A stretch of 64,000 nt of DNA from Bacteroidota bacterium (GCA_037128705.1 JBAXVX010000012.1:38122-102121); one strand, 5' to 3'; shown: positions 10,459 through 32,435, counted from the first letter of the stretch. The notes: a model not told the origin generated them from the sequence alone. Program-made: numbers and translations.

Positions 10459-10857
10459 ATGAAGAAAAAGATACTCGCAATTGATGATGAAAAGAGTATC
10501 CGGTTTATCATCGAAAATACGTTTAATAAGGATTTCGAAGTTACTTCGATCAGTAACGGCATGGATGCCTTATTTTATTTGCAGACCGGAAATCTGCCGG
10601 ATGTAATTATTTGTGATGTTGAAATGCCTGTTTTAAATGGCTTTGAATTTATCAGAAGGATTCGTGAAAGTGGCTTCTTTGATGAGATTCCATTGATTAT
10701 GCTTTCCGGGAAAGAAGAAAGTGCCGACAAGATCAAATGCTTTGAAATGGGGGCCGATGATTATGTTCTTAAACCATTTAACCCCAAAGAACTCATAGCA
10801 AGAATCAAACGCCGGCTGGAATTTAAGGAATTATACTCGCAACGCAGAGGGAACTAG
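10459..10857 (+). CDS. Single-domain response regulator (receiver only)
   Basis: AIDDE acidic pocket, DVIICD phospho-acceptor Asp, LSG and KPF motifs; no output domain. Confidence 0.93.
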   Translation: MKKKILAIDDEKSIRFIIENTFNKDFEVTSISNGMDALFYLQTGNLPDVIICDVEMPVLNGFEFIRRIRESGFFDEIPLIMLSGKEESADKIKCFEMGADDYVLKPFNPKELIARIKRRLEFKELYSQRRGN

Positions 10858-10863
10858 TGTTTT

Positions 10864-12096
10864 ATGGATGAAGCTTCAGTCACACCTTTGAAAATTCTTT
10901 ATATTGGCAATGATCAGAAAACCATTGATCTATTCCAGAAAAGCGATTTATTTGACGTTACTCAGCTCCCGAACGGGCTTGCCTCACTTTATTTTTTAAC
11001 AAACAGTAATTTCAATCTTTTTGACCTGGATCAGGATACCCGGTTTGAAAAGGTGTATCAGCAAACGCATGCGATTGATGCAATCCTATGCGAATTTATC
11101 CTGCCGGGAATAAATGGCTTATCCTTCTATCGCAAGCTTAAACTGAACAAGGTCTATCAGAAAACTCCATTTATCATCATTTCCCTGGTCCGGGATGAAG
11201 GGATCAAAATGGAGTCATTTAATATGGGCATCGATGATTTTTATCATAAAGAATTAAATCTCTTCAATATCCATAGCCGTATTCTTTTTCTGAAAAAGTT
11301 TAAGACCGAATATGTCCCCAAGCCCATGTCGCTTCAGGATGAAAACATGACGCCGTATAAGACTCCATTGCCAAAACGCATTTTCGATGTAACCCTTGCT
11401 TTATTGGCTCTGTTGATTTTATCCCCAATTATGCTACTGACTGTTATTGCCATTTTAACTGAGTCCCGTGGCAAGGTCTATTATATAGCCAAACGGGTAG
11501 GTGCCAATTATAGAATATTCGATTTCTACAAGTTCAGATCCATGTATCCTGATGCAGATGCCCGCATTAAAGATGTGGCTCACCTGAACCAATATATTGG
11601 CGAATCGGTTGAGGCTACCTGTTCGGAATGTGATAAACTAGCTGCAGGTCAAACCTGTTCACCCATCGTATATTATGATGGTGAAGAAATCTGCGAGCGC
11701 CTTGCAAATAGAAAACGCAGCGCAAAAAAAGCATTTCTGAAAATCAAGGATGATCCAAGAATAACCCGGGTCGGCAGATTTATAAGGATGGCCAGTATTG
11801 ATGAATTGCCGCAACTCTTTAACATCATTAAAGGAGATATGTCGATTGTGGGGAACCGCCCGTTGCCAATGAATGAAGCAGAAGCACTGACGAAAAAAAA
11901 ATGGAGCCGACGCTTCAGGGCTGCATCAGGTTTAACCGGCCTGTGGCAAGTTGAAAAACGTGGCAAAAAGGGAACCATGTCTGAAGAAGAAAGATTTGCC
12001 CTGGATAATTATTATGCTGAACACAATTCTTTCTGGGGTGATATAAAATTGATCATCCGAACCTTTGCAGTATTCATTCAAAAAGAAAATGTCTAA
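10864..12096 (+). CDS. Priming phosphoglycosyl transferase (Bac_transf sugar transferase) with N-terminal atypical receiver domain
   Basis: KRIFD-membrane helix, YKFRSM, DDPRITRVGRFIR, SIDELPQL, GDMSIVGNRP and GLTGLWQV; N-terminal ~140 aa receiver-like (DAILCEFILPGING). Confidence 0.92.
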   Translation: MDEASVTPLKILYIGNDQKTIDLFQKSDLFDVTQLPNGLASLYFLTNSNFNLFDLDQDTRFEKVYQQTHAIDAILCEFILPGINGLSFYRKLKLNKVYQKTPFIIISLVRDEGIKMESFNMGIDDFYHKELNLFNIHSRILFLKKFKTEYVPKPMSLQDENMTPYKTPLPKRIFDVTLALLALLILSPIMLLTVIAILTESRGKVYYIAKRVGANYRIFDFYKFRSMYPDADARIKDVAHLNQYIGESVEATCSECDKLAAGQTCSPIVYYDGEEICERLANRKRSAKKAFLKIKDDPRITRVGRFIRMASIDELPQLFNIIKGDMSIVGNRPLPMNEAEALTKKKWSRRFRAASGLTGLWQVEKRGKKGTMSEEERFALDNYYAEHNSFWGDIKLIIRTFAVFIQKENV

Positions 12097-12117
12097 GAAC
12101 CCGATAAACAGCAATAA

Positions 12118-12906
12118 GTGGATATGAGAGCAAGATATATTATTTTAATGATTATTTTTCTTTTGAACTTTCCACTCTATTTTTTTGGACAGGGATCATC
12201 AAAACCTGGGGGTTCACCGGATTCAACCGCAACATTCAACCCCTTTGTGGATGATATCACCCTGCGCATTCCACCACTCGAAGACCTGATTGACTCTGCC
12301 ATCATGAACTCCCCGGCTTTGAGATCGCAGGATGCGGATATTGCCATCTGGAAATATAAAATTAAAACTGCCAGAAGAGATTGGATGTCAAACTTGTATA
12401 TTGACGCTCTTCTGCAAAATGACACATGGGATGCCTTGACCAACAATCAGACAAACTATGGGGATAACAATTCTGTACTTTCCACTCAGAACAACAACCG
12501 GGCATTGGCGGCCCTGAGCCTTCGCTTGCCGCTGGATGATTTATGGGATCGCAGGAACAGAGTTAAAACTGCAACAAAAGAGGTTGAGAAATCGATGGCC
12601 ATTAAGGATAACCAAATAATTGAATTGCGAAAGTTAATCATTGTACAATACAATCAGTTAATTGTAAATCAACGTATTCTTAAAATAGCCAATGATAATA
12701 TATATGCCCAGGCTTTGCAGAAAGAGATGGGCGATAAAGAATATATCAACGGGCAGATAACGCTGTATGAGTTGGCCTTTATCAATGAAATGTACAGGAA
12801 AGCAGTAACGGACTTTGAAGAATCACGGTTTGCATTCTACAATGCCTATATGCTCCTTCAGGAGATTGCTGGCATTAAGTTCAACGTAATAAATAAAATA
12901 GATTAA
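12118..12906 (+). CDS. TolC/OEP-like outer membrane protein containing a single repeat (half length)
   Basis: Signal peptide; LEDLIDSAIMNSPAL helix; LSLRLPL strand; long helices ending YINGQITLYEL...LLQEIAG, as in OEP repeats. Confidence 0.72.
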   Translation: MDMRARYIILMIIFLLNFPLYFFGQGSSKPGGSPDSTATFNPFVDDITLRIPPLEDLIDSAIMNSPALRSQDADIAIWKYKIKTARRDWMSNLYIDALLQNDTWDALTNNQTNYGDNNSVLSTQNNNRALAALSLRLPLDDLWDRRNRVKTATKEVEKSMAIKDNQIIELRKLIIVQYNQLIVNQRILKIANDNIYAQALQKEMGDKEYINGQITLYELAFINEMYRKAVTDFEESRFAFYNAYMLLQEIAGIKFNVINKID

Positions 12907-15581
12907 TGAAAATTATTTATTTCATACGATTACTTCAGAGACATATTTTACTATTAATACTCGTACCACTGATTATTGCATTGGTTGTTTTTTTACTTAC
13001 CAGGAAAAGCCAATGGTCCTATAGTTCAGAAACAACAATCTATACTGGCGTTACTTCCGGATATTCTGTTCAGCAGCAGGCCAACATCGATTTTATGGCG
13101 ACGGCTGCCTCTTTCGACAACCTGATCAACCTTATCAAAGCCAGGCAGACGCTTGAAGAAGTTTCTGTCAGCTTGCTTGCCCAGCATCTGTTACTTGATC
13201 ATTATGATCCGCGGTTTATCTCCAAAGAAAATTATGAAGATTTGCTGTTAAAAGTCCCTGCAGATGTCATCGATATCGTAAAAAAAGCCAAACGGAACGA
13301 TAAACGGTATTATCGTCCACCCTCAAAAAGAACCTCCAGTCTGGACACCGCACTCTACCAGAACGATTTGCAGGAAGAAATAGCAAGTTATTCCCAGGGC
13401 CATTCCAGCCTGAATAACTCGAAGAAATTCCATGTGGTCAGGCGGGGAGAAACCATGTACTCCATCGCTAAAACCAATGGACTGCGTGTTGATGAGTTAA
13501 TGACATACAACAATTTACAAGAAAATGACCTGACTGTCGGGCAGAAACTTATTTTAAACAACAACGAAAATTTACCTGAGGCCTCTCCTACTCCCGACGA
13601 AGGTTATGAACCGGAGCCCTCCCCTGCAAGCCAGAATTCTGGTTCAGACTCAGCTACCCGGGTTACTGATTTTTTTTACAGCAGCGACACACTCATTTCT
13701 GCTTCCCGCGGGATACAGGATTCATCCGCATTTGACAGGATTGTAAGGCGATTACTCGCCTATGGGCATCAAAACAACTACAACTTCATTTATAAACTGT
13801 GGAGTTCCGAAGATGACCGTTTTTACAGTATCAAGGTCCTTTCAACCATCGGGATTTACCGGGTCCAGAGCAGCGACCTTATTAAATTGACCTATACAAA
13901 TCCGGATCCGGGTATCTGCCAGCAAACATTGATCTTTCTGACACGTGTTTTTATCGCCAACTATAAACTTCTGAAGCAAAATCAAACGGATGCAGTGATC
14001 CAGTATTTCAAGCGTCAACTTGAAGATGCGGCCCGCCGTTTAAAGAAGGCCGAAAATGATCTGCTCATCTTTAACGAACGAAACAACATCATCAACTATT
14101 ACGAGCAAACTAAAATTATTGCTATCACCAAGGAAGAACTTGACGTGTCGCTGCAGAACAAGCAGATCTCTTTTGCCTCTTCCGATGCAGCCATTAAAAT
14201 CATTGAAAAGAAACTGGAGGCGCATGCCAAAATTTCTTTAAATACGAGCGCAATACTTCGCCTTCGGAATGAATTATCCGAAACCACGATGCAAATCGCC
14301 AATATCGAGATCGATCTGGGAAACGATTCGGCGACAATACAGCAACTCGCCGGACTTAAGTCCAGGGTTGAAAATATCAAGCTGGCAATTAAAAACAACA
14401 TCGACCGCCTGTATTTGATAACAAATACAGTTGAAGGATTGCCTACCAAGGAACTGCTGGACGCCTGGCTTAAAAATGTGATTGCCTACGAAGAAAGCAG
14501 GGCTGCCTTCAGGGTTCTGGCCGAAAGAAAAAAGTATTTCCAGCATGTATATGAAGTTTTCGCTCCTCTTGGAGCAGAAATGAAAAGGATAGAGCGATTG
14601 ATTGGCGTTACTGAAAGTGAGTTTTTACAACTTCTTCATGATTTAAGTCTGGCTAAACTCCGTCAACAGGACGATGAATTGAGAACCAACATTAAAGTGG
14701 TCGACCCGCCTTATTATCCTTTGAATCCCATCCGTTCAAGAGCGCTGTTGCTTGTTCTTGCGGCAGCAGTTGTCGGCTTTATCCTGATCGTGGCCATTCT
14801 CCTTGCGATGGAATTTTTTGATACAACCATTAAAACACCCGAAAGGGCCGAACGGTTTATTAAGCTAAAAGTCGCCGGGGTTTACCCTCAAATAGCCAAA
14901 CAAATCTATGATGTGGATATTGGGTTCATCATTCCCAGGCTTGTTGAAATCCTCGCCCAGAACATCAAATTGACTTTGGTTAGAGCAAACCTGGCTCAAG
15001 ATAAAAAACCAATCATGATCCTGCTTTTCAGCACACGCGATGCCGAAGGTAAAACCAGTATTGGGCGTGAACTCAGCAGAAAACTAAAGTCATTTGGTGA
15101 AAATGTGCTCTTTCTGAACTACGTCAAAGAAACCGGAGGAGGAACCGCCTATATGATGGGCGGAGACCTGATCCCCCCCAATGACGATGAGATACAATAT
15201 TCGATCAGAGAGAATTTCTTTGAAACAAAAGATCTGGCTTCCCTGATGGTTGGATATGAACATATTGACCTGGAAAGCATTGATTATCTTATTGTTGAAA
15301 TTCCTTCCCTGATTAACAACCCATATCCTCTGGAATTCATCCAGCAATTTGACCTGTCGTTAATCGTTACCAGGGCAAACCGCTCATGGACCATGGCTGA
15401 TAATACAGCCTTGAATGCATTCCTCCCCCTTTGTAAACAAAACACCCAAATCGTACTCAACGGGGTTGAATTGCTTTATCTGGATGATATCTTTGGAGAG
15501 CTTCCTCGTCCGAGATCAAAATTCAGAAGAAAGGCAAAACAGATTTTGACTTTCCGGTTTCGTGAAAAGAATATAATTTAG
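12906..15581 (+). CDS. Wzc/GumC-like polysaccharide co-polymerase with an inserted LysM domain and degenerate ATPase domain
   Basis: N-terminal TM, YSSETTIYTG, coiled coils, IKVVDPP, second TM, EFFDTTIK, STRDAEGKTS P-loop remnant; LysM HVVRRGETMYSIAKTNGLRVDELMTYNNL. TAATG overlap with the upstream gene. Confidence 0.85.
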   Translation: MKIIYFIRLLQRHILLLILVPLIIALVVFLLTRKSQWSYSSETTIYTGVTSGYSVQQQANIDFMATAASFDNLINLIKARQTLEEVSVSLLAQHLLLDHYDPRFISKENYEDLLLKVPADVIDIVKKAKRNDKRYYRPPSKRTSSLDTALYQNDLQEEIASYSQGHSSLNNSKKFHVVRRGETMYSIAKTNGLRVDELMTYNNLQENDLTVGQKLILNNNENLPEASPTPDEGYEPEPSPASQNSGSDSATRVTDFFYSSDTLISASRGIQDSSAFDRIVRRLLAYGHQNNYNFIYKLWSSEDDRFYSIKVLSTIGIYRVQSSDLIKLTYTNPDPGICQQTLIFLTRVFIANYKLLKQNQTDAVIQYFKRQLEDAARRLKKAENDLLIFNERNNIINYYEQTKIIAITKEELDVSLQNKQISFASSDAAIKIIEKKLEAHAKISLNTSAILRLRNELSETTMQIANIEIDLGNDSATIQQLAGLKSRVENIKLAIKNNIDRLYLITNTVEGLPTKELLDAWLKNVIAYEESRAAFRVLAERKKYFQHVYEVFAPLGAEMKRIERLIGVTESEFLQLLHDLSLAKLRQQDDELRTNIKVVDPPYYPLNPIRSRALLLVLAAAVVGFILIVAILLAMEFFDTTIKTPERAERFIKLKVAGVYPQIAKQIYDVDIGFIIPRLVEILAQNIKLTLVRANLAQDKKPIMILLFSTRDAEGKTSIGRELSRKLKSFGENVLFLNYVKETGGGTAYMMGGDLIPPNDDEIQYSIRENFFETKDLASLMVGYEHIDLESIDYLIVEIPSLINNPYPLEFIQQFDLSLIVTRANRSWTMADNTALNAFLPLCKQNTQIVLNGVELLYLDDIFGELPRPRSKFRRKAKQILTFRFREKNII

Positions 15582-15582
15582 G

Positions 15583-16980
15583 TTGAAAAAGCTACTGACA
15601 AAATTAGTCAATGATCTGAATTTCCTATCCTTAGCGGCTAATTTTTCAACCGCGATCATGGGTCTTTTATCCTTTATGATCCTGATGCGAATGCTCTCAA
15701 TCCCGGATTTCGGAAAATGGGTCCTCTTTACCGCACCTGCATCCCTGATAGACATGATGCGTTTCGGACTTAGCAAAGAAGCCCTGGTCAGGTTTCTGTC
15801 ATCTCCAACCGAAACCAATCGTAAATACTATCTGGGATCAAGCTGGGCCATCGGTTTTTTAATTCTGATCCCCATTGCGATAATCCTGTGGGGACTGACA
15901 TTCCTCATTCCAAAAGCACTGAATACAAGCGGATATGATGTTTTTTGTTATTGGTACCCCATTCTCGCCCTGATTAATCTGCCATGGAATTATGCCTGGA
16001 CTATTTTTCAGGCTGAACTGAATTTTAAAAGAATTTTCTGGATCAGATTTTTCAACCTCTGTTCATTTCTTATCATTATATCGATTGCGTACTTTGTGAT
16101 TAAAATTGATATTACAGTGGTTGTGATCATCTACCTGCTCACGAATTTTGCGACATCGGCATTCTGCCTGGTTAAAAAGTGGACCGGGCTTGAATTTATC
16201 AGATATATTTCGTTCGCTAAAATGAAGGAAGTGCTCAGATACGGGCAGTTTTCCATGGGAACCAAAGTCGGAAGCAGCCTGCTGAAAGGAGCTGATAGTT
16301 TTATCATCTCCTTCAGTGCATATTGCGGACCAATTGGGGTGGCTCTGTATGCCATTCCACTGAAATATGTAGAACTTATCGAAATTCCCCTGATCAGCTT
16401 TGCTACAACAGCTTTCCCGAAATTATCTAAGGCAAGCATGGACAATGACCCGAACCGGTTCCGGAATATTTTTTATTCCTATACCGGTATTGTTGTGTTT
16501 ATGTTCATAGGAATAGCCATACTCAGCCTTTTCCTGAACAAATTTTTCATTTTATTTATCGGGGGCAGTAAATATGTAGATTCACTAACTCCCCTTTCAT
16601 ACATCATGATGATGTTTATAGTATATTGTACCCTTTTGCCACTTGACCGCTTTACGGGAGTTGCTCTTGACAGTTTGAATAAACCGCAACGGAATTTTCA
16701 AAAGGTACTATACATGACCACTGCCAACATCCTTGGTGATATTTTTGCTGTATTCGGGATGCATTATTTGTTTCCGGCTTTACCGGTAACCACCTTGCTG
16801 TTTTTTGTCGCCATTGCATCCATTGTGTTTTCCCTCATCGGAATTTTTGTCGGGTACAGGTTTCTCCGGCAGGAAATCGACATCTCTTTTTGGGAAATTT
16901 TCAGGAAAGGATATGTTTTTTACAAGGAAAATGCCATCCGTCTGCTTTGGAAAAAACCTGTGAGAAATGAATCCAACTAA
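15583..16980 (+). CDS. Wzx-like oligosaccharide flippase (MOP superfamily)
   Basis: About 12 TM segments, RMLSIPDFGKW and GVALYAIPLK patterns; lies in a polysaccharide locus. Confidence 0.82.
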   Translation: MKKLLTKLVNDLNFLSLAANFSTAIMGLLSFMILMRMLSIPDFGKWVLFTAPASLIDMMRFGLSKEALVRFLSSPTETNRKYYLGSSWAIGFLILIPIAIILWGLTFLIPKALNTSGYDVFCYWYPILALINLPWNYAWTIFQAELNFKRIFWIRFFNLCSFLIIISIAYFVIKIDITVVVIIYLLTNFATSAFCLVKKWTGLEFIRYISFAKMKEVLRYGQFSMGTKVGSSLLKGADSFIISFSAYCGPIGVALYAIPLKYVELIEIPLISFATTAFPKLSKASMDNDPNRFRNIFYSYTGIVVFMFIGIAILSLFLNKFFILFIGGSKYVDSLTPLSYIMMMFIVYCTLLPLDRFTGVALDSLNKPQRNFQKVLYMTTANILGDIFAVFGMHYLFPALPVTTLLFFVAIASIVFSLIGIFVGYRFLRQEIDISFWEIFRKGYVFYKENAIRLLWKKPVRNESN

Positions 16981-18448
16981 TCCATTTCTTTCCAAGACCG
17001 GCGCCGACCGCCTTAAGGATCCCTTCCTCATCGGGTCATTACTCATCATGTCGGTTGGCATCGGATATATCATTGCCAAAGGTGGAATGACCATCGCCTC
17101 GGTTTTAATGGTTTTACCATTCCTGGTTTATGCCCTGAACAGGCTGATCGCAAAACCTGAAATCGGACTGACCTTTGCCTTTATCATCAACTTTATCCTG
17201 ATGGGGCTTACAAGATACCTGCCCGTCAAATTAGGGTATGTAATGGACATTACGCTCATCGTAATTTATATTGCCATTTTTTTCCATTATTTTGATAAAA
17301 AGTTCCCATTTGGTTCTGTAAAGATGGATCTGGTCCTTCTGACAATCATTTGGTTTGCTTACATCAGCCTTGAATTTTTCAACCCTGAAGCAATCAGCCG
17401 GGCAGCGTGGTTCGCAGCTTTTCGTGGGATCGCACTCTATATGCTGCTGACGATCCCCCTCGTCTTCATGCTGTTCAATACCCCACGACATTTGGAAAAA
17501 TTTCTTATGATATGGGGAGTCTTCTCCATCCTGGCTTCGGTGAAAGCCTGGATGCAGTTAAATCTCGGCCCCGACCCATGGGAACAACAATGGCTGGATA
17601 CAATTGGCGGAATTACCCATCTCATTCAGGGAAACCTCAGGGCCTTCTCTTTTTATACGGACGCCGGCCAGTTTGGCGCCGCCCAATCGCAGATCGGATT
17701 AATTGCCACCATCCTGATGCTGAATGAAAAAAACACAAAAAAACGGATTTTCTGGATTGCCGTGATGATCGCTGGCTTTTATGGTATGTCCAGTTCGGGT
17801 ACACGCGGCGCTATTGCTGTTCCCATGGCAGGCTTACTTTTATACATGATCCTGCGTAAGAATGTCAAAGTAATTGTCATCGGGGGCATCGTGTTTATGA
17901 TGATTTATTCATTTTTCCGGTATACCTATATTGGCAATTCCAACTATCAGATTTTTCGTATGCGGACTGCATTCGTCCCTGAAGATGATGCCTCCTACCA
18001 GGTCCGTTTAGCCAACCAGAGAATTCTTTCAGAGTACCTGAAGACCAGACCATTCGGAAGTGGGGTCGGCCAGTCAGGCGACAAAGCAAAACAATATTCA
18101 CCCGACTCCTACCTTGCATCTATTGCCACAGACAGCTGGTTTGTGCTGATTTGGGTTGAAAACGGGATTATTGGCTTGTACCTTCACCTGTTTATTCTTG
18201 GATTTATACTAGGAAAGGGAACGTTTATCTGCATGTTTGAAATTAAAGATCCTGATCTGTTCGTAAAGATCGGGGCACTCCTGAGTGGCGTTTTCGGAAT
18301 TATCATTGCCAGTTATGGGAATGCCGTGCTCGGACAGTTCCCGACAGGTATCCTGATATATGCCAGTATGGCTTATGTTTTTATAGCCCCTGACCTGGAT
18401 AAACAATTGCAGGAAAATGAAACGATTGTTCAACCTAAAACATTGTAA
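16967..18448 (+). CDS. O-antigen ligase / Wzy polymerase family protein
   Basis: Multiple TM segments, SSSGTRGA motif, periplasmic loop with RPFGSGVG and DSWFVLIWVENGIIG. Confidence 0.82.
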   Translation: MNPTNPFLSKTGADRLKDPFLIGSLLIMSVGIGYIIAKGGMTIASVLMVLPFLVYALNRLIAKPEIGLTFAFIINFILMGLTRYLPVKLGYVMDITLIVIYIAIFFHYFDKKFPFGSVKMDLVLLTIIWFAYISLEFFNPEAISRAAWFAAFRGIALYMLLTIPLVFMLFNTPRHLEKFLMIWGVFSILASVKAWMQLNLGPDPWEQQWLDTIGGITHLIQGNLRAFSFYTDAGQFGAAQSQIGLIATILMLNEKNTKKRIFWIAVMIAGFYGMSSSGTRGAIAVPMAGLLLYMILRKNVKVIVIGGIVFMMIYSFFRYTYIGNSNYQIFRMRTAFVPEDDASYQVRLANQRILSEYLKTRPFGSGVGQSGDKAKQYSPDSYLASIATDSWFVLIWVENGIIGLYLHLFILGFILGKGTFICMFEIKDPDLFVKIGALLSGVFGIIIASYGNAVLGQFPTGILIYASMAYVFIAPDLDKQLQENETIVQPKTL

Positions 18449-18453
18449 TATAA

Positions 18454-18594: not shown

Positions 18595-18636
18595 TCTATT
18601 CCATCCATGGATTTTAAACCCTGATCACCTGATTAA

Positions 18637-19584
18637 ATGCAAAACATGCTGACCGAAAAACCCCTTTCAAGTTACCCGCTTGTCTCCGTGATTACGGTCA
18701 ATTACAATCAGCCGGAGATTACCTGTGATTTTCTTGAATCGATGACCCATATTACCTACCCGTCGATCGAGATCATTGTTGTTGATAATGCTTCTCCAAC
18801 CAAAAATCCTGATATTATTCTGGAAAAGTATCCCAACATTACTTTGATTAAAAGTGATCAAAACCTGGGTTTTGCCGGGGGGAACAATCTTGGCATCCGG
18901 GTGGCAAAAGGGAAACACATGTTACTGATAAACAATGATACGGAAGTTGACCCGGGATTTCTTGAACCGCTCATTGCCAAATTAGAGAACAATCCTGATA
19001 TAGGTGTCGTCAGTCCTAAAATCAGATATTTTTTTCATCAGGACACCATTCAATATGCCGGGTTTACCCCCATTAACCCTATCACCATCCGGAACAACAG
19101 CATTGGATTTAACGAGATCGACCATGGGCAATATGACGCAGATGCCCGGACGAATTACGCATTTGGGGCAGCCATGGTCATTCCGTTAAAGGTGATGAGG
19201 GAGGTGGGCCTGATGGCCGACATCTTTTTCCTGTATTACGAAGAGATGGATTGGATGCAACGCATAAAGGACGCTGACTATAAGATATTTTATGTGCATA
19301 ATTCCCTGGTTTTTCATAAAGATTCGATCACAACCGGGACCATGAGCGCTCTTAAAATATTTTACCTTAACCGGAACAGATTGCTTTACATGCGGCGGAA
19401 TGTTCATGGATGGAAAGCCATCTTATCCGTAATTTATCAGATGAGCATTGCCATCCCGAAAAACATCACAACATTCCTGTTAAAAGGACAGTTCAAGCTA
19501 TGTTCCGCATATATCAATGCCGTGTTCTGGCATCTGAAAAATTTGAACAACAAAGAATTGCACGAAAGTCCGCATCTGAATTAA
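18637..19584 (+). CDS. Glycosyltransferase family 2 (soluble, WbbL/rhamnosyltransferase-like fold)
   Basis: VSVITVNYN, VVDNAS, NLGFAGGNNLG, LINND, FFLYYEEMDW. Confidence 0.92.
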   Translation: MQNMLTEKPLSSYPLVSVITVNYNQPEITCDFLESMTHITYPSIEIIVVDNASPTKNPDIILEKYPNITLIKSDQNLGFAGGNNLGIRVAKGKHMLLINNDTEVDPGFLEPLIAKLENNPDIGVVSPKIRYFFHQDTIQYAGFTPINPITIRNNSIGFNEIDHGQYDADARTNYAFGAAMVIPLKVMREVGLMADIFFLYYEEMDWMQRIKDADYKIFYVHNSLVFHKDSITTGTMSALKIFYLNRNRLLYMRRNVHGWKAILSVIYQMSIAIPKNITTFLLKGQFKLCSAYINAVFWHLKNLNNKELHESPHLN

Positions 19585-19615
19585 ACTTCATTCTGAATCA
19601 TACTGAAACTGTCCA

Positions 19616-20539: not shown

Positions 20540-20571
20540 TCGTTTCGCTTGTATTCGGACTGATTTATATT

Positions 20572-20579: not shown

Positions 20580-20620
20580 CTTCAGGGGGACTGCCTGAAT
20601 TCTTTTTATATCGTATAGTT

Positions 20621-23038: not shown

Positions 23039-24171
23039 AAATTGGAATTGAAGGCCAGCGACTTTTCCGTCAGAAAAAACATGGAATGGATATGGTTGCA
23101 CTCGAGCTGATCAGAAATCTTCAGCAACTGGACAAACAAAATGAATATTTCATTTTTGTAAAAAATGATGTAGACCGCTGCCTGTCCGACACTCCGAATT
23201 TCAGAATCATCGACGTTCCTTCAGCACCCTACCCGATCTGGGAGCAGGTGAACCTGCCGGCTGCTGCCAGGAAATATCATTGCGATATTCTCCATTGTAC
23301 GAGCAATACAGCCCCGGTGGTAACCTCTGTTCCACTGGTCGTTACACTGCACGACATTATTTATATGGAAAGCATGAGTGTTCTGAAAAAGGGATTTACG
23401 CCCTACCAGAAATTCGGCAACATGTACCGGAGATATGTCGTTCCCCAGGTTGTACGGAAAAGCGCAAAAATCATTACTGTTTCAGAATTTGAAAAGAAGC
23501 GGATCGGGGATTTTTTCAAGGTGAATGATCATAAACTGAAAGCCATCTATAATGGAGTGAGCGATCATTTCAAGCCGATCTCTGATACGGAATACCTGGG
23601 CAGGATCAAAGCAAAATACAATTTACCCGATAAATATTTCTTCTTCTTCGGAAATACCGATCCAAAGAAAAACACCCCCGGGGTTTTAAAGGCCTTTTCT
23701 CTTTTTCTGAATTCCTCTGAAGAAAAAATACCCTTGGTCATGCTGGATTTTGACCTGAATGAATTAACAAAAATCATCAATAATATAGGAGATCCTTCCC
23801 TTCACAACTTTATTAAACTTACCGGTTACGTTCCCAACAGTGAGCTGCCTGCCTTGTATGCCTTAAGTACCATTTTTCTCTATCCCTCACTGCGCGAGAG
23901 CTTTGGAATTCCAATGCTGGAAGCCATGGCATGTGGAATTCCGGTCATTACTTCCAACACAAGTTCAATGCCCGAAGTGGGTGGAAACGCCGCTCTCTAT
24001 GTCGATCCCTATAAACCGGAAGAGATAACAACAGCCATCAAAAAGCTTTTGGCAGAACCCTTATTGCGTGAATCCCTTATCAGGAACGGATTTGAAAATG
24101 CACGGAAATTCTCGTGGGCAGCCATGGCGAAAAACGTACTGAACCTTTACCAGGAAGTTGAATTCAAATGA
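23035..24171 (+). CDS. Glycosyltransferase family 4 (GT-B)
   Basis: VTLHD, YPSLRESFGIPMLEAMACG (EX7E), FSW near the C-terminus. Confidence 0.93.
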   Translation: MKIGIEGQRLFRQKKHGMDMVALELIRNLQQLDKQNEYFIFVKNDVDRCLSDTPNFRIIDVPSAPYPIWEQVNLPAAARKYHCDILHCTSNTAPVVTSVPLVVTLHDIIYMESMSVLKKGFTPYQKFGNMYRRYVVPQVVRKSAKIITVSEFEKKRIGDFFKVNDHKLKAIYNGVSDHFKPISDTEYLGRIKAKYNLPDKYFFFFGNTDPKKNTPGVLKAFSLFLNSSEEKIPLVMLDFDLNELTKIINNIGDPSLHNFIKLTGYVPNSELPALYALSTIFLYPSLRESFGIPMLEAMACGIPVITSNTSSMPEVGGNAALYVDPYKPEEITTAIKKLLAEPLLRESLIRNGFENARKFSWAAMAKNVLNLYQEVEFK

Positions 24172-24191
24172 GAAATTAAAATATTGAAGCC

Positions 24192-26015
24192 ATGGATTTT
24201 ATAATAACCGGTTTACAGCCTTTTGATAGTGATATCGGATGCAATTGCATTAACCTGGCTATTGAATTCGCAAAACACCATCGTGTACTTTATGTGAACT
24301 ATCCTTTGGACCGGTTAACAATTCTTCGTGAAAAAAATAATCCGAAGATTCAAAAACGGATAAGGATGCGTAAGGGAGAGCTTGAAAACCTCGTTCAAAT
24401 CAATGAGAACCTGTGGAGTTTTTACCCCCGGACTATCCTCGAATCAATAAGTCAGATGCCAAACAATACCCTGTTCGATTTCTTTAACAGGATCAACAAT
24501 AAACGATTTGCCAGGGAAATTTCATGGGCTGCTGAAAAACTTGGGTTTAAGAACTACATCATTTTCAATGACAGTGACATGTTCAGAAGTTTTTACCTGA
24601 AAGAATACCTAAAACCTCTGCTGTACATATATTATTCGCGGGATAATATGATTGCTGTTGACTGGTGGAAAAGGCAGGGAATCCGCATTGAAGCTGCATT
24701 GATCCAAAAATCGGACATTGCGGTGGCCAATTCGGTTTATCTGGCACGGTATCTGAAAAAATTCAATCCACACTCCTATTATGTAGGCCAGGGATGTGAT
24801 GTGAGTGCTTTTGATATCAACCTGATCAATACAGTTCCTGAAGATATCAGGAACATCCATAAACCAATAATCGGCTACATAGGTGTATTGTATACGCTCC
24901 GTTTGGATATTGAGATTATCACCTACCTTGCCAAATCGCGTCCCGACTGGTCCATCGTACTCATTGGGCCCGAGGATGAAGGTTTCAAGAACAGTGAACT
25001 GCACCATGTCCCCAATGTTCATTTTTTGGGAAGCAAAAAACCGGATGATCTGCCTATGTATCTTGCCCAATGTGATGTCGCAATCAATCCACAGATTTTG
25101 AATGAGGTCACAATCGGTAATTATCCGCGAAAAATTGATGAGTACCTTTCCATGGGAAAGCCTGTTGTAGCTACTAAAACAGAGGCTATGCAGGTTTTTG
25201 AAGATTTCACGTACCTTGCAACCACCAAGGAAGAGTACTTAATTCTGGTCGATCGCGCCTTGAAAGAGAATAGTCCCGAATTGGCAAAAGCGCGTGAAGA
25301 GTTTGCCCGCAGCCATACCTGGGAAGCCAATGCCAATGAAATATACCGTGCCATCGATCTTGTTCAAAGGAATCCATCGCCCCGGATTGATTCTTTTAAA
25401 AGTTCATTTATCTCAAGACTCAAATCAAAACCAAGGATAAAAAAATTAATGCTCTTTCTGCTAATTCCAAAAAACCAGGCGCGGCCCCGGCTTTGGGTAC
25501 AATTGTTTGTCAATCCATTCAAACATAAAAGAGGAAAACGCTCTACAATACGCCGTCGTACAAGACTTGATGTTTTCCCATGGAATAAGTTCATCCTGGG
25601 AGATGATTCAACAATTGAAGACTATTCAACTATAAATAACGGAGTCGGCCCTGTAATTATTGGGAATCGTACAAGGATCGGGATGAGTAACGTTGTGATT
25701 GGACCCGTGACCATAGGCAATGATGTCATGTTTGCTCAAAACATTGTTCTTTCAGGGTTAAATCATGGATATGAAATTATTGATATCCCTCCAACGAAAC
25801 AAAAAACCACAAAAGCTGAAATCGTGGTGGAAGATGAGGTATGGATTGGAGCGAATGCGGTGGTTGTCGCCGGCGTCAGGATAGGTAAACATTCAGTAAT
25901 TGCTGCCGGCAGTGTTGTTACTAAAAATGTCCCTCCCTACTCCATTGTTGGAGGTAACCCTGCCAGACTTTTAAAGCAATACAATGAAGAAACTAAAATG
26001 TGGGAAAGGAAATAA
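24192..26015 (+). CDS. GT-B glycosyltransferase fused to a hexapeptide-repeat (left-handed beta-helix) acyltransferase
   Basis: N-terminal ~390 aa has GYIG and [16 protein letters not shown]; C-terminal has [50 protein letters not shown]. Confidence 0.88.
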
Positions 26016-26017
26016 CC

Positions 26018-27199
26018 ATGCTCATACTGAAAATCATTTTCTGGACTTTTGTGTTTCTGGTTTTTTATGCTTACTTAGGTTACGGCATCCTGCTTTATTT
26101 TCTTGTTAAGATTAAGCAGGTTTTAACAAAAAATAAAGTGACAGAGGAGCCGGAGGTATTCGAACCTGAGGTAACCTTGTTTGTTACAGCGTACAATGAG
26201 AAGGATTTTGTTGATCTGAAACTTCAAAATTCTTTTTCGCTGGATTATCCCAAAGATAAGGTCAGGCATGTGTGGATCACCGATGGATCTGACGACGGAA
26301 CTCCTGAGTTGCTGCGCAAATACCCGGGTGTTGAAGTTTTTCATCTGCCTGAGCGGACCGGGAAAATCGCAGCCATGAATCGCGGAATGCAATTCGTTAA
26401 AACACCGATCGTGATTTTTTCAGATGGGAATACATTGCTGGGAACAGAGTCCATCCGAAGGATCATCAGGCTTTTTAACAATCCTAAAGTTGGATGTGTT
26501 TCAGGTGAAAAACGCATTTTCTCTAAAGATACGACTGCTGCGACTGAGGGTATTTACTGGAAGTACGAGTCAAAATTAAAGAAGCTGGATGCTGAGCTCT
26601 ACACCGTGGTTGGTGCAGCAGGTGAATTATTTGCATTGCGGACGGAACTTTTCCAACCGGTTGAAAAGGATACGCTCCTTGATGACTTTATCATCTCGCT
26701 CCGCATTGCCGCTAAGGGATATACCATTCAATATGATCCCGATGCCTATGCCATTGAAAATCCATCAGCCAATGTGCGGGAGGAATTAAAGCGCAAAATC
26801 AGGATCTCAGCCGGGGGCATCCAATCCATTGTCAGGCTTAAAGAGTTGCTGAATCCGTTCAGGTTTGGCGTACTTTCATTTCAGTATATCTCCCACCGGG
26901 TTCTGAGATGGACCCTTGCTCCTTTAGGTTTACCGATCATTCTTTTGTGCAACCTGGCCATCGCCCTGATGCTCGGCATTTTTGATTTTTCAAATATCTA
27001 TACCTGGCTTTTCTGGGCACAGCTTCTATTTTATTCAATTGCACTTCTTGGGTGGTACCTTGAAGAAAAGAACATCAAGGTAAAACTGTTTTATATTCCT
27101 TATTATTTCTTTATCATGAACCTTGCTGTCTATCTTGGTTTTAACCGGTATATAAAAAAAAGGCAATCAGTTAACTGGGAACGTGCAAAACGAGGCTAA
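26018..27199 (+). CDS. Membrane GT2 (IcaA/PgaC-like family)
   Basis: VTAYNE, TDGSDDGT, GKIAAMN, SDGN, GELFALR, LDDF; TM segments at both ends. ATG at 26018 chosen as start. Confidence 0.9.
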   Translation: MLILKIIFWTFVFLVFYAYLGYGILLYFLVKIKQVLTKNKVTEEPEVFEPEVTLFVTAYNEKDFVDLKLQNSFSLDYPKDKVRHVWITDGSDDGTPELLRKYPGVEVFHLPERTGKIAAMNRGMQFVKTPIVIFSDGNTLLGTESIRRIIRLFNNPKVGCVSGEKRIFSKDTTAATEGIYWKYESKLKKLDAELYTVVGAAGELFALRTELFQPVEKDTLLDDFIISLRIAAKGYTIQYDPDAYAIENPSANVREELKRKIRISAGGIQSIVRLKELLNPFRFGVLSFQYISHRVLRWTLAPLGLPIILLCNLAIALMLGIFDFSNIYTWLFWAQLLFYSIALLGWYLEEKNIKVKLFYIPYYFFIMNLAVYLGFNRYIKKRQSVNWERAKRG

Positions 27200-27208
27200 A
27201 CTTAAACA

Positions 27209-28903
27209 ATGTTACGCATAATTCCCTTTCTGGTATTAAGATCATTCCTGCTGACCTTTGTCTTGGTTGGTTTATCGTTTTCAGGATTGACCCAGGTTAG
27301 GAGATGCAAACTTACCATTGATGCATCCGTAACCATGATCACCGGGCACGGCAATGCGGCCGGCATTCTTCCGGGAGATACCATATGCCTGCAGCCCGGA
27401 CAAAAATCATTCCTGCTCTTTTCATACCTGCATGGATCAAAAAACAATCCCATTGTCATTCAGAACACTGACGGGTTGGTTTTCATTAATAACACTTCAA
27501 ATTATGGAGTTAAATTCGATTCCTGCTCCTATCTGAAATTTTCGGGGGCAGGTTTTTCTCCCTTAAAATATGGTATCAAAGTTGACCGCACGGTTGGAGC
27601 AGGACTTTCTGTAGATGGATTAAGTACGGATATTGAAATTGAGCATGTTGAGATCAGCAATACCGGCCTGGCAGGAATTTTTGCAAAAACAGATCCAAAC
27701 TGCCAGTTCAATTCAACCAGGGAAAAATTCACCTTGAGAAATCTCATTATCCATGATAACTACATTCGCATTACCGGCATGGAGGGGATGTACCTTGGAA
27801 GTTCAAAATTCATGGGACAGACGATCACCTGCGGAGGAAAAGATACGACTGTTTTACCCCATCTTCTGAAGGGAGTCAAAGTGTATCGTAACATTGTAGA
27901 AGAGTCGGGCTGGGATGCCATCCAGGTGAGCTCAGCTGATTCAGGATGCACTGTATATGACAATGTGATTGTCAGGGACAGTAAACTGGCTGTCACCTAT
28001 CAAATGTCAGGAATCCTCATCGGGGGTGGCACGAATGCCAAAGTTTTCAACAACCAGATAAAAGATGGATTTGGAGATGGCATTGATGTGATTTCAATGG
28101 GCTCGCAATACATTTATAACAACCTGATCCTGAATCCGGGCAGCGCATATAAACCTGACAGTAACTTTTCTCCATGGTTAAAACATGGCATTTATATAGG
28201 AAGTGACTATTCTGCCCAGTCAAATTCGTATCTGATCATTTTCAATACGATTATCTCTCCAAAAAGTGATGGGGTAAAGTTCACGGATAATAAAAGCACG
28301 AGGAACTTTGTGGCAGACAATATTATCATAGACCCTGGTTCATTTCCCGCCGAGGGAGAAAACGCCTATATAAACCTGGGGTCATCTTCAACAGATGTCA
28401 CTGTTTTAAATAACCTTACCACCCTCGATATTAATTCTGTGAAGTTTATAAACCCGGATCAGGAAAATTATGATTTAAAACCCAACTCCCCTGCGGTTAA
28501 CAGCGGGGCTCCGGTTAGTGCCATGGAACTCCATATTGATTTGCTTAACCGGATCCGGCCCTTTGCAAAATATTATGATGTCGGTGCATTTGAATGCCAG
28601 GATTCATCTCTGCTCGATACCCCTGAGTATGAAACCGGAGCAGATCTTCAATTAAAAGTTTCACCCAACCCTTCATCTGGAAGATTTAATGTTGAATATC
28701 AGCTATTTTATCCAACTGACATCACCATTTCATTACTGGACAACCAGGGAAGAATTTTAATGCGAAGAAACTGGAATGGTCAGCTTCCCGGGAAATATCA
28801 GTTCGTTTATGACGGGGATTCCATGAAACCTGGGTTCTATTCACTGATTTTTAAAAGCAATAGCTTGTTTATAACAAAGAAATTAATAATATTGACCAAC
28901 TAA
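27209..28903 (+). CDS. Right-handed parallel beta-helix protein with T9SS type A C-terminal domain
   Basis: Signal peptide, repeated xNNxI beta-helix turns, DLKPNSPAVNSG...DVGAFE motif, CTD VSPNPSSG...GFYSL...KKLII. Confidence 0.82.
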   Translation: MLRIIPFLVLRSFLLTFVLVGLSFSGLTQVRRCKLTIDASVTMITGHGNAAGILPGDTICLQPGQKSFLLFSYLHGSKNNPIVIQNTDGLVFINNTSNYGVKFDSCSYLKFSGAGFSPLKYGIKVDRTVGAGLSVDGLSTDIEIEHVEISNTGLAGIFAKTDPNCQFNSTREKFTLRNLIIHDNYIRITGMEGMYLGSSKFMGQTITCGGKDTTVLPHLLKGVKVYRNIVEESGWDAIQVSSADSGCTVYDNVIVRDSKLAVTYQMSGILIGGGTNAKVFNNQIKDGFGDGIDVISMGSQYIYNNLILNPGSAYKPDSNFSPWLKHGIYIGSDYSAQSNSYLIIFNTIISPKSDGVKFTDNKSTRNFVADNIIIDPGSFPAEGENAYINLGSSSTDVTVLNNLTTLDINSVKFINPDQENYDLKPNSPAVNSGAPVSAMELHIDLLNRIRPFAKYYDVGAFECQDSSLLDTPEYETGADLQLKVSPNPSSGRFNVEYQLFYPTDITISLLDNQGRILMRRNWNGQLPGKYQFVYDGDSMKPGFYSLIFKSNSLFITKKLIILTN

Positions 28904-28913
28904 ACTTATCACC

Positions 28914-29720
28914 ATGAAAAGTGCACTAAAAAAAATAATTCCGTTCTGGCTGGGCAGGAAACTCAGGGGAGGTTATCAAAAGATAAGCGGTTTACTCTAT
29001 TCTGGTGGTTCATATTATTGTCCCTACTGCAAAAAATCATTTCGCAAGTTTCTACCGGGGGGATCCGATATTCCCGTGATCTATGAAAAACAAATTGTAG
29101 GTGCAGGTTACAGACAAAACAATGTATGCCCTCGCTGTTACTCCTTAGACAGGGACCGGCTTATCTATTTGTTTCTTCATGAAAAGTCCACAATCTTCAC
29201 CTCACCTCTCACCTTGTTCCATGTTGCTCCCGAAGGTTGCCTGCGAGCCATGTTGTCCTCTATGTCAAATATCACCTATGTCGCAGGGGTCAAATATCTC
29301 GAAGGATATTATTATGCACGTTTAACCGATCTCCTGGATATTACGAGCATTCCTTATGATGACGAAGCATTCGACGTGGTAATCTGCAATCATGTGCTCG
29401 AACATATCCAGGACGACGCACTTGCGATCAGGGAATTATACAGGATTTTGAAACCCGGAGGTTGGGCAATTTTACAAGTCCCCCTTTCTAAAATTCTGGA
29501 AAAAACATTTGAAGATCCTACAGCTATTGATCCGGAAACAAGGGAACGCTTTTTTGGTCAGTTTGATCATGTTCGAATCTACGGTCAGGATTATAAGAGC
29601 AGACTAGAAAAGGCAGGATTCGTGGTAAAAACATATAATCCAACCAGGGAAAAATGGGCAATGAACATTCAGCAATTTGCGATTAATCCTGATGAAGATC
29701 TATATGTTGCCTATAAATAA
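28914..29720 (+). CDS. Class I SAM-dependent methyltransferase-like protein with N-terminal CxxC...CxxC
   Basis: CPYC and CPRC, HVAPE, LDITSIPYDDEAFDVVICNHVLEHI, RILKPGG. Confidence 0.85.
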   Translation: MKSALKKIIPFWLGRKLRGGYQKISGLLYSGGSYYCPYCKKSFRKFLPGGSDIPVIYEKQIVGAGYRQNNVCPRCYSLDRDRLIYLFLHEKSTIFTSPLTLFHVAPEGCLRAMLSSMSNITYVAGVKYLEGYYYARLTDLLDITSIPYDDEAFDVVICNHVLEHIQDDALAIRELYRILKPGGWAILQVPLSKILEKTFEDPTAIDPETRERFFGQFDHVRIYGQDYKSRLEKAGFVVKTYNPTREKWAMNIQQFAINPDEDLYVAYK

Positions 29721-29728
29721 CTGACCAG

Positions 29729-31141
29729 ATGCAAAGTATCTACCTCCAATTATTCATCCTGTTGGTCACGATCATTATATTCATCGTGATTATTTATATC
29801 CTCTGGAAGAGAAACAGGCAACTGGCTGAAGCAGTTTCCAGCAAATCCACTGAACTCGACAAGGCATTTGTCCATAATGAAGAACTGAAAGACTCCATTG
29901 AAACGACCGTACAGGAAAGGATCCAGGGCATCAAAGATGAATTTGAAGAGGGTGAAAAATCCGATTTTACCCTGAAACGGGCCTTGAAAAGGTCGGAAGA
30001 ATCCAATTTCATGAAGAATGCCTTTCTCTCCAATATCAGCCATGAAATCAGGACCCCTTTAAATAATATCATCGGTTTCTCAAGCCTTTTGGAGGCAGAA
30101 ATATCCCTGCTTGAAAATAAGGAATTGTTCGATTATGCACGCGCTATTTCAGACAGTGGCGACCGGCTGCTGCATCTTTTGAACAACATCATAGATATCA
30201 GCAAACTGGAGGCGAACGACATGCATATTGTGTTGAAATCATGTGATTTAAACACAATCGTGGCCAATGCGACCCAGCTGTATATTTTCAAAGCAAATGA
30301 ACAAAAACTGAAATTGAATTTAAAAACCAATGAGGTTCCGGCAGCATGCGTTGATGAGAAAGGGCTGACTAAGGTCATCAGTGCTGTTGTTGAAAATGCA
30401 ATAAAATTTACCCAAAACGGCTTCATTAACGTTTCAACCGAATTTATCAGTGAGAAGGATGAGATCTGCATCCGGGTAAAGGATACCGGTGTGGGAATCG
30501 ACCCGTCATACCTGCCATTGATATTCGACCCTTTCAGGCAGGACAGCCTGGGTTATTCAAAAGATTCACAAGGTGCCGGTCTTGGATTACCTCTGTCAAA
30601 AAGCCTCGTTGAACTGATGCGCGGACGCATTGAAATTGAATCTGCGAAAGGGGTAGGAACAACCGTTACCATCTATTTTCCTCCTGAAAAGTCAACCAGG
30701 GAGGATCCTAATAAAAAGGAGACAACACGGAAACAAAAATTCAAATCATTGCAAGGTCTGGAAATTTTCATTGTTGAAGATGACCTGATGAATAAAATTG
30801 TTTTATATGAGATGACGAAAGCCCTTGGAAACGTGGTTACTGCAGTCAATGGAGATGAAACAATGAAGATTATGACGGAAACCTACAATAGCGGAAAGAT
30901 CTTTGATATCATGTTGTTTGATATCAATCTTCCTCCGCCCTGGGACGGAACGCGGCTCATGCAGGAAATTCGAAAAAAATGGAAAGAGTATAAAACTATT
31001 CCGTTCGTGGCACAAACAGCCTATGCCATGGCCGGGGATAAAGAAAAACTTTTGGAATCTGGTTTTGATGATTATATTTCCAAACCGATCAACCAGCAGG
31101 AACTATACTCTATTATAAAAAATCAACTGAATAAATTTTAA
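29729..31141 (+). CDS. Hybrid histidine kinase (single TM, HisKA, HATPase, receiver)
   Basis: [13 protein letters not shown]-box, NAIKFT, DTGVGI, GAGLGL, receiver [10 protein letters not shown]. Confidence 0.93.
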
Positions 31142-31142
31142 A

Positions 31143-32435
31143 ATGGAAGAATCACAAGGGAATAAAGAAGGGTTTGTTTCGAAAGAAGAGCATGAAAAGG
31201 TGCGCAATGCCCTTCTGAAAGCTAAACAGGAAGCGGAGAATGCCAATAAATCAAAAACCATGTTCCTGGCGAATATGAGTCACGAAATTCGGACTCCTAT
31301 GAACAGCATCATCGGGATTTACAATGTACTGAGCCAGACCGAGCTTTCAAGCGAGCAACGTGAATTTCTGGAGATCATAAACATTTCAAGTGTTAACTTA
31401 CTCACGATAATAAACGATATTCTGGATTTATCGAAGATTGAAGCTGGTCAGCTGAAACTGGATAAAAAGCCCTTCTTTCTTCAGGAAGAGATCCACCAGG
31501 TGATCAAACTATTATCCATCAAAGCCAAAGGAAAAGGAATTGATCTGTATTCCAAGATCCAGTCAACAGTACCCAACTGTGTTATTGGTGATCCCGTAAG
31601 ATTAAAGCAGATCCTGATCAATCTCACCAACAATGCAATAAAATTTACAAATGAAGGACAGGTGGTCGTCTCTGTTGAAACCATGCCAATAAAGGGGATC
31701 AACCTCAGCGACTTTATCGAATTTGCTCCGGAAAACCTGAAAACCGGTGCCGATTTGGGGCCAGAGGAGGTATTGTTAAAATTCGAAGTGGTTGATACCG
31801 GAATTGGTATTTCTGATGAAGATCAACAGACTTTGTTTAATGATTTTGCTCAGCTTGAGAATTCGGTTGTCAAGCAATTCGAAGGGACAGGTTTAGGTTT
31901 GTCCATTTCCAAGAATCTCACCAGGATGATGAATGGGAGAATCGGGTTACACAGTGAAAAGGGGAAAGGATCGACTTTTTGGTTTACCATTGTTTTTGAA
32001 AAGGGAGATGAAGAGCAGCTTACCCGTGAGCGTATTGGCATTACCGCTCAGAAAAAAATCCTCCCCCCTCTTTCTATTCTGCTCGTTGAAGACAACCTGT
32101 TAAATCAAAAATTTGCGATGACCAGTCTTCAACGGGCCGGTCACCATGTTGAACTCGCAGAAAACGGAAAATTAGCCGTTGAAAAATTTAAGAATGCCTC
32201 GTATGACCTGATCCTGATGGATATTGCCATGCCAATTATGGACGGTATTGAAGCAACCCGCGTGATTCGTGATCTGGAAAAAGGGGACAGGCGAATAAAA
32301 ATTGTTGCTGTAACGGCCCATGTGATGGTTACCGACCGTGAAAAGTGTTTAGCAGCAGGGATGGACGAATATATTTCAAAACCTTATCGTCCCCATGAAT
32401 TGATCTCAATAATCGAAAGCCTTGACTGGGACTAA
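31143..32435 (+). CDS. Cytoplasmic hybrid histidine kinase with no sensor domain
   Basis: [12 protein letters not shown] about 45 aa from the N-terminus, NAIKFT, DTGIGI, GTGLGL, receiver [10 protein letters not shown]. Confidence 0.94.

Follow-up and report, generated by a model that had tools for sequence, protein, structure and literature searches.

How do bacteria share out undecaprenyl phosphate (Und-P) among glycan pathways that compete for it? This question is open, and a locus in the genome of a Bacteroidota bacterium raises it in a concrete form: are the genes of an exopolysaccharide (EPS) pathway controlled here by a phosphorelay that acts on the initiating enzyme itself, and by what route would the polymer leave the cell? 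The stretch analysed, hereafter the window, is 64,000 nucleotides (nt) long (GCA_037128705.1 JBAXVX010000012.1:38122-102121), and the locus, at positions 10459-32435, consists of 17 tightly packed, co-oriented genes on the + strand, with gaps of -16 to +188 nt, as established from a listing of open reading frames (ORFs) and from Pfam and NCBIfam scans. An earlier note on this DNA had described about 18 such genes bracketed by signalling genes, and had proposed that kinases signal to the priming enzyme through a single-domain receiver; the arrangement stands although the count is 17, the observation itself is confirmed, and the interpretation is partly supported.

We hypothesize, with a probability of roughly 0.6, that the locus represents a conserved Wzx/Wzy exopolysaccharide pathway of the Bacteroidota, the core of which consists of a stand-alone response regulator (REC), a small monotopic priming transferase, a single-repeat outer-membrane-factor protein (half-TolC) and a Wzc-like co-polymerase, and in which priming is gated by REC through a phosphorelay.

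The paired receiver and priming transferase

The cassette begins with these two genes:

10459-10857, + strand: REC, stand-alone single-domain response regulator (PF00072, 2.3e-28)
10864-12096, + strand: priming phosphoglycosyl transferase (PGT), with an N-terminal pseudo-receiver and a small monotopic Bac_transf domain (PF02397, 1.9e-57; PF00072, 1.2e-08)

No other feature of the cassette is as well conserved as this pair. When species-representative genomes were scanned for the transferase, 80 loci were obtained, 64 of which passed strict complete-ORF filters; the adjacency of REC, assessed by tblastn and ORF analysis, was evaluable in 74 of the 80, the remaining 6 ending at a contig edge. 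In 71 of these 74 loci the gene directly before the transferase is a separate REC; L027 is ambiguous, L033 has none, and in L078 a hybrid kinase takes the place of REC. The transferase family is large, comprising proteins of about 410 amino acids (aa) with both Pfam domains, chiefly from metagenome-assembled genomes of Bacteroidota; the cassette is present in Parabacteroides, some Bacteroides, Draconibacterium and Pedobacter.

A second sample took a single genome from each family in the order to which the window belongs. The transferase was found in 19 of the 100 other genomes, and 40-kb regions were obtained for 18 of them. In 15 of these 18 an intact REC directly precedes the transferase; in G041 it is interrupted, in G026 it lies downstream, and in G085 none was found. 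The half-TolC, co-polymerase and Wzy genes follow on the same strand in 13 and occupy another part of the region in G035, G081 and G091; in G051 and G085 the region ends at a contig edge. REC and the transferase remain paired even where the rest of the cassette has been inverted or displaced (G035, G091). In a phylum-wide sample REC stands immediately upstream of all eight long-form transferases. Because the same gene order is found in dozens of genomes, the arrangement is far beyond chance, and the check across Bacteroidota that the earlier note had suggested finds the core of REC, transferase, half-TolC and co-polymerase conserved. As a separate observation, the REC upstream of the transferase in the G041 region (L115, ~7417-10085) appears to be in two pieces about 2 kb apart, as if disrupted by an insertion.

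REC is 132 aa long from its ATG (139 aa from an alternative TTG at 10438), has PF00072 as its sole domain, and is a canonical receiver in which the acidic pair, the phospho-acceptor Asp, the Ser and the Lys-Pro are all present; among 64 orthologues the residues D10, D53, S83, K105, P106, F107, N108, P109 and E111 are invariant. Pfam matches and inspection of residues therefore bear out the description of an intact receiver followed by a receiver-fused priming transferase. The transferase has 410 aa, with the fused domain at about residues 1-160 (PF00072 match at 56-140) and the catalytic domain behind it (PF02397 match at 171-405); it matches TIGR03025 at 2.4e-68, a score under that model's cut-off. 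In the window protein a Glu occupies the position where the phospho-acceptor Asp is expected, as it does in three further, distant long-form transferases. Across 65 orthologues the acceptor column holds Glu in 18, Tyr in 14, Phe in 11, Asp in 5, Leu in 5, Ser in 4, Val in 3, His in 2, Met in 2 and Ile in 1, so that in 60 of the 65, where the acceptor residue is not Asp, the fused domain is a pseudo-receiver. The catalytic domain also contains an insert of about 40 aa (residues ~245-285) with four cysteines (C253, C256, C265 and C277) that are invariant among 14 close relatives, not over the 65 orthologues; this insert may be a lineage-specific zinc-binding knuckle.

A complex of the two proteins, the prediction of which the earlier note had suggested, was modelled from a 65-row transferase alignment and a 64-row REC alignment (61 rows reported as used), in three runs with three controls. 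The ipSAE values were 0.71, 0.72 and 0.73, against 0.00 for the best control; pLDDT was at least 83 for the partners, and at least 81% of the contacts were common to the runs. In calibration, 58 of 80 solved complexes and 2 of 110 mismatched pairs attained the mark; these counts apply only roughly here because the alignments were user-supplied. On the transferase the modelled contacts fall at residues 115-164 (the C-terminal helices and a strand of the pseudo-receiver) and at 215-217 and 340-352 (the catalytic domain); on REC they fall at 11-21, 30, 36-46, 67-73 and 105-109, the last of these being the family-invariant K105-P109 loop. The model supports, rather than demonstrates, binding of REC to the transferase.

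Cassette layout and putative export proteins

The other genes of the cassette, together with one gene upstream of it, are as follows:

12118-12906, + strand: half-TolC, 262 aa, single-repeat outer-membrane-factor protein (PF02321, 2e-15)
12906-15581, + strand: Wzc-like co-polymerase, 891 aa, with LysM insert (LysM, 1e-11; weak Wzz match; TIGR03007, 2e-14)
15583-16980, + strand: Wzx/MOP-type flippase, 465 aa, multi-pass membrane protein (weak WZX_like match, 2e-3; ESM Atlas)
16967-18448, + strand: Wzy-type polymerase (PF04932 Wzy_C, 4.9e-12)
18637-19584, + strand: glycosyltransferase (GT) of family GT2 (Pfam)
19616-20539, + strand: GT2 glycosyltransferase (Pfam)
20621-21820, + strand: GT2 glycosyltransferase (Pfam)
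21833-23038, + strand: GT2 glycosyltransferase (Pfam)
23035-24171, + strand: GT4 glycosyltransferase (Pfam)
24192-26015, + strand: GT4 glycosyltransferase fused to a hexapeptide acyltransferase (Pfam)
26000-27199, + strand: GT2 glycosyltransferase (Pfam)
27209-28903, + strand: right-handed beta-helix protein with a C-terminal sorting domain of the type IX secretion system (T9SS) (Beta_helix, 2.8e-13; Por_Secre_tail, 5.9e-06)
28914-29720, + strand: SAM-dependent methyltransferase (Methyltransf_11, 2.9e-14)
29729-31141, + strand: HK1, membrane-anchored hybrid histidine kinase with transmembrane (TM) helix, coiled coil, HisKA, HATPase and REC (Pfam, sequence)
31143-32435, + strand: HK2, soluble hybrid histidine kinase with HisKA, HATPase and REC (Pfam, sequence)
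7199-8314, + strand: endonuclease/exonuclease/phosphatase-family protein, outside the cassette (PF03372, 3.3e-16)

The cassette encodes a priming PGT, Wzx, Wzy and a polysaccharide co-polymerase (PCP), as expected of a Wzx/Wzy pathway, the last being recognised by its fold. The same set of GTs was found again in the regions of other families, which implies one conserved polymer or repeat unit and not a variable capsule; the locus is a conserved Bacteroidota EPS cassette, distinct as the earlier note had inferred, and not a variable UpxY-type capsule locus. That note had also reported the lack of UpxY/NusG, Wza/OPX and nucleotide-sugar genes, and the Pfam scan agrees, finding no Poly_export/OPX, NusG-like or nucleotide-sugar synthesis domain among the cassette ORFs. 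The upstream neighbour is uvrB, and a 93-nt intergenic gap precedes REC; TATATTTG, located 20 nt upstream of the REC ATG, resembles a Bacteroidota-type -7 promoter element. An invertible promoter at the 5' end was considered and rejected, as the surroundings of the gap hold only weak inverted repeats of 10-13 nt.

The half-TolC protein has a signal-peptide-like N-terminus and a single stretch matching PF02321. Its AlphaFold2 (AF2) model (pLDDT 83.3) shows two long strands and long helical hairpins, and Foldseek returns OprM, TolC and VceC as best matches (E ~1e-5, probability 1.00) with TM-scores of 0.57-0.60 when normalised to the query (TMq) and about 0.35 when normalised to the target (TMt), a difference which indicates that half-TolC spans half of each target; structurally it is one TolC repeat, in accordance with the original description. 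A phmmer search against PDB sequences gave no match at E<=1. A profile of 45 orthologues matched 441 cluster representatives at E<=1e-30 in a representative library, and the best 150 of these 441 are nearly all 240-270 aa long with one matched stretch; relatives of this size are so many that half-TolC must be regarded as a real, populated family. Searched with the orthologue profile, 58 of the 80 loci contain a half-TolC ORF, and in every one of these it separates the transferase gene from that of the co-polymerase. Outer membrane factors of the TolC/OprM type are usually trimeric; three copies of half-TolC would make only half a barrel, and a complete one would take six or more.

In its AF2 model (pLDDT 77.5) the co-polymerase has the PCP-2a architecture: two TM helices and a helical domain in the periplasm, together with a P-loop domain on the cytoplasmic side that carries Walker A. 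Foldseek places full-length E. coli Wzc first (6e-17), the kinase domain 3la6 reaching TMt 0.60; phmmer against E. coli Wzc gives 1e-3. The cytoplasmic C-terminal 233 aa have no Pfam match at E<=1, and the bacterial tyrosine kinase (BY-kinase) fold was recognised from the model only. Of 43 orthologues, 42 retain the Walker A motif S-x5-GK[ST] and about 40 a hydrophobic-E-x-P motif; their C-terminal 40 residues contain 0-3 Tyr (one in the window protein), with no Tyr cluster. The earlier note had spoken of a LysM-Wzc channel: the 891-aa protein is indeed Wzc-like with a BY-kinase fold, and the LysM domain is an insert present in only 12 of the 43. We infer that the polymer would be exported through half-TolC and this co-polymerase, without an OPX protein.

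As to the remaining genes, the 465-aa membrane protein has no Pfam match; it fits a Wzx flippase, on the basis of the weak NCBIfam match and of its nearest ESM Atlas clusters, which carry Polysacc_synt at a feature score of 0.99 (to be taken as a lead only). Wzy is conserved downstream of the co-polymerase and flippase genes in related loci. The beta-helix protein, orthologues of which lie within the cassette in G011, G057, G077, L016, L019 and L024, is probably a secreted enzyme that modifies or cleaves the polymer; orthologues of the methyltransferase stand before the kinases in G011, G057 and G074.

Two observations concern the flanks. In rearranged loci without uvrB (L031, L040, L059, L067, L069, G062, G081 and G091), homologues of the PF03372 gene recur beside REC and the PGT or within the cassette, and the protein encoded at 7199-8314 may, with some uncertainty, be an unrecognised accessory of the pathway. 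Beyond the 3' end, the - strand at 32460-36471 harbours a gene for a 1043-aa protein that has an Ig-like CHU_C domain and ends in a T9SS sorting domain, and a PorP/SprF-family gene (35536-36471); the two look like a cargo/PorP-like pair converging on the 3' end of the cassette.

Kinases, proposed mechanism and rival explanations

The two genes at the 3' end encode hybrid kinases, as had been described, with HisKA-HATPase-REC organisation and intact C-terminal receivers; HK1 has one TM helix, a coiled coil and no sensor domain, and HK2 is soluble. Pfam finds no DNA-binding domain in any of the four receiver-bearing proteins, again as first described. Full-length HK1 orthologues (43-55% identity) occur in G011, G024, G041, G051, G057, G074 and G084, so that, in the order-wide sample, orthologues with at least 43% identity are found in 7 of 19 cassette-bearing genomes and in 0 of 81 cassette-less ones. 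In G057, G011 and G074 their place is the 3' end of the cassette, the same as in the window, and in G057 and G011 HK2 adjoins them. Different kinases stand beside REC in other lineages (among them G091, L031, L032, L034/L055 and L078), and in three distant loci, L119, L121 and L129, the gene just before REC encodes a HisKA-HATPase-REC-Hpt kinase; L120, outside the Pfam scan, looks similar. Cassette kinases are thus lineage-specific yet recurrent, sometimes with a built-in Hpt, and the two in the window represent one sub-lineage: the linkage of kinases to the cassette that had been claimed holds for HK1 in 7 of 19 genomes, other lineages having different kinases or none nearby. As an aside, the HK1 orthologues of G011, G024, G084 and G066 lie in open frames of about 880-930 aa, about twice the 470 aa of the window protein, which points to an additional domain or a fusion there.

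In the mechanism that we propose, the sensor-less HK1 and HK2 would phosphorylate REC at Asp53, directly or via an unlinked Hpt protein. REC in one phosphorylation state would then dock on the cytoplasmic face of the priming enzyme, where, according to the model, it would touch both the non-phosphorylatable pseudo-receiver, on its alpha4-beta5-alpha5 side, and a portion of the catalytic domain. Docking would switch the Und-P-consuming first step post-translationally, with either sign possible, by analogy with Myxococcus xanthus, in which the phosphorylated single-domain regulator EpsW (EpsW~P) is reported to act post-translationally and to activate the priming enzyme EpsZ (Schwabe et al., mBio 2025, PMC12802240). 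The seven GTs would build the repeat units, Wzx would flip them, Wzy would polymerise them under the Wzc-like protein, and the polymer would exit through an oligomer of the single-repeat TolC in place of OPX. A more specific version is possible, and we advance it tentatively, with more doubt than confidence: OPX-independent Wzx/Wzy export through a ring of 6 or 8 half-TolC copies on a Wzc-like ATPase devoid of a Tyr tail, gated by REC on a Glu-bearing (phospho-mimic-like) pseudo-receiver. If true, the EpsW-EpsZ principle would have evolved a second time, independently, and in a form that gut Parabacteroides and Bacteroides possess.

Several observations weigh against REC-gated priming as set out here. 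With respect to the relay, no Hpt domain was found in HK1, HK2 or elsewhere in the window, and a stand-alone Hpt ORF of about 120 aa lies in the source genome (G000) at C10:29955-30317 (L081), without linkage to the cassette; no other small Hpt was found in that genome, and this one is a candidate for the middle step of the relay. With 91 kinase cores in its 3.94 Mb, the source genome has about one every 43 kb, and at this density proximity alone is weak evidence; none was seen in the examined regions of G001, G019, G025, G080 and G081, and three cassette-less genomes hold HK1-like matches at 39-42% identity. With respect to the target, the phylum sample includes 12 short-form transferases (~240-285 aa, without the pseudo-receiver), and REC is immediately upstream of 5 of them (for the others, REC lies about 2.2 kb upstream in 4, a weak divergent REC only is present in 1, and there is none in 2); L063 has another short transferase with an adjacent REC. 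The pseudo-receiver is dispensable for the pairing. Since REC adjoins the short forms and the modelled interface reaches the catalytic domain, the pseudo-receiver would not be the sole target of REC, and perhaps not a necessary one; of the earlier proposal that REC signals to this domain, the coupling of REC to the transferase is supported, by the 71 of 74 loci and by the complex model. The score of that model may also owe something to the predictor's memory of solved receiver complexes, the control set having contained no non-cognate receivers. With respect to the cassette and its exit, ten Bacteroides loci (L035, L036, L046, L049, L054, L058, L068, L072, L074 and L077) have REC and the transferase with neither half-TolC nor co-polymerase within 10 kb; a GT2 gene and an acetyltransferase-like gene follow in these ten, and the pair may there serve another pathway. 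Finally, the only Poly_export match of the source genome lies on contig C69, followed by a 397-aa ORF, and this unlinked OPX protein could serve the pathway as an alternative exit.

Some of these points are shared by an explanation that we consider unlikely, namely that REC is a relay intermediate or phosphate sink whose real output lies elsewhere, in an unlinked DNA-binding regulator or in the P-loop domain of the Wzc-like protein, so that adjacency reflects co-expression alone and the pseudo-receiver is a structural or dimerisation module. Single-domain receivers that act as phosphate sinks are known; the Hpt-less hybrid kinases with their unlinked Hpt point to a branched relay, REC occurs also beside transferases that have no pseudo-receiver, and the Wzc-like protein, its Tyr tail lost, would need some other control. 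Direct action on the priming enzyme has, however, a direct precedent in Myxococcus (PMC12802240), and the complex model reaches 0.72 against 0.00 in the controls. In rearranged loci (G035, G091, L034 and L055), moreover, REC stays by the transferase and not by the co-polymerase or the kinases, and it is a REC loop invariant and specific to the family that lies in the modelled interface.

Far less probable still is an ordinary capsule or O-antigen-type locus that lies by chance near two-component genes, is controlled transcriptionally and exports through the unlinked OPX, the short OEP protein belonging to an unrelated efflux system: the density of kinases in the genome, the OPX gene and following ORF on C69 and the Bacteroidota-type -7-like motif ahead of REC would suit it, whereas gene order and GT set are conserved over many families, unlike those of variable capsule loci, half-TolC keeps its place between transferase and co-polymerase, HK1 orthologues at or above the 43% identity mark are confined to cassette-bearing genomes, and there is neither a UpxY-like gene nor, in the 93-nt gap, room for an invertible promoter.

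Comparison with known systems

Bacteroides capsule loci are controlled by UpxY (NusG-like) and UpxZ and have invertible promoters at their 5' end. The cassette resembles them as a Bacteroidota surface-polysaccharide cluster with Wzx and Wzy, but it is without a UpxY-like gene or a region of the size of an invertible promoter, its GTs are conserved, and it has a receiver and kinases of its own; the conserved GT set suggests a common, uncharacterised Bacteroidota exopolysaccharide. With the group 1 Wza-Wzc system of E. coli it shares the Wzx/Wzy pathway and a PCP-2a protein with BY-kinase fold and conserved Walker A. By contrast, the cassette is without Wza/OPX, and its co-polymerase has no C-terminal Tyr cluster, carries Glu for Asp in the Walker B-like motif and, in one sub-lineage, has the LysM insert. 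Half-TolC is like TolC and OprM in its beta-hairpin, its long coiled helices and its Pfam OEP match; it differs in having one of the two structural repeats (240-270 aa versus ~430-490 aa) and in being encoded with a co-polymerase, not with an efflux pump. A half-TolC gene beside that of a Wzc-like protein, without an OPX gene, is a concrete candidate for a new outer-membrane polysaccharide route, and this inferred route is the most original part of the proposed system.

In the literature searched, neither the Bacteroidota cassette nor its paired REC was found described, nor any half-TolC that takes part in polysaccharide export; a paper on Prevotella intermedia (PMC9262359) is irrelevant to the cassette. 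According to the Discussion of PMC12802240, O'Toole, Imperiali and Allen (PNAS 2021) catalogued receiver-fused small monotopic PGTs (monoPGTs), their function being untested. These share the Response_reg and Bac_transf architecture with the window transferase, and the account given of them in that Discussion makes no mention of a partner REC, a degenerate acceptor, a half-TolC or a cassette. The earlier note had presented the system as a candidate undescribed one: this agrees with the literature searched as regards the cassette, and the principle is known from EpsW and EpsZ (PMC12802240).

The closest parallel is indeed this Myxococcus pair. As reported in PMC12802240, EpsW~P was proximity-labelled with EpsZ, a large monoPGT, the activity of EpsZ in Salmonella was raised by EpsW, and EpsW was modelled on the DUF and the catalytic domain of EpsZ. 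In both systems an intact-Asp single-domain regulator is encoded with a Wzx/Wzy EPS pathway and acts (here in the model) on the initiating transferase, and in both the modelled regulator touches a non-catalytic cytoplasmic domain as well as the catalytic domain. The differences are that EpsZ, a large monoPGT, contains a TM-helix bundle and a DUF and is proposed to be activated through dimerisation, whereas the transferase described here is a small monoPGT with a pseudo-receiver and no TM bundle; that the Myxococcus kinase is the CheA-type DifE, whereas HisKA hybrid kinases are found here; and that the phyla differ. In the NCBIfam scan the window transferase scores 145.8 bits against the EpsZ model (cut-off 800), and the EpsZ and EpsF models are both matched far under their cut-offs.

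The Myxococcus precedent and the 2021 catalogue, so far as both are represented in PMC12802240, mean that the regulatory idea is not new in principle; the proposed Bacteroidota variant of receiver-controlled priming is itself undescribed in the literature searched. The occurrence of the cassette in cultured species of Parabacteroides, Bacteroides and Pedobacter makes it genetically testable. A large monoPGT of Myxococcus is so far the only priming enzyme for which control by a response regulator has been shown; the cassette would extend such control to the small monoPGTs and to another phylum.

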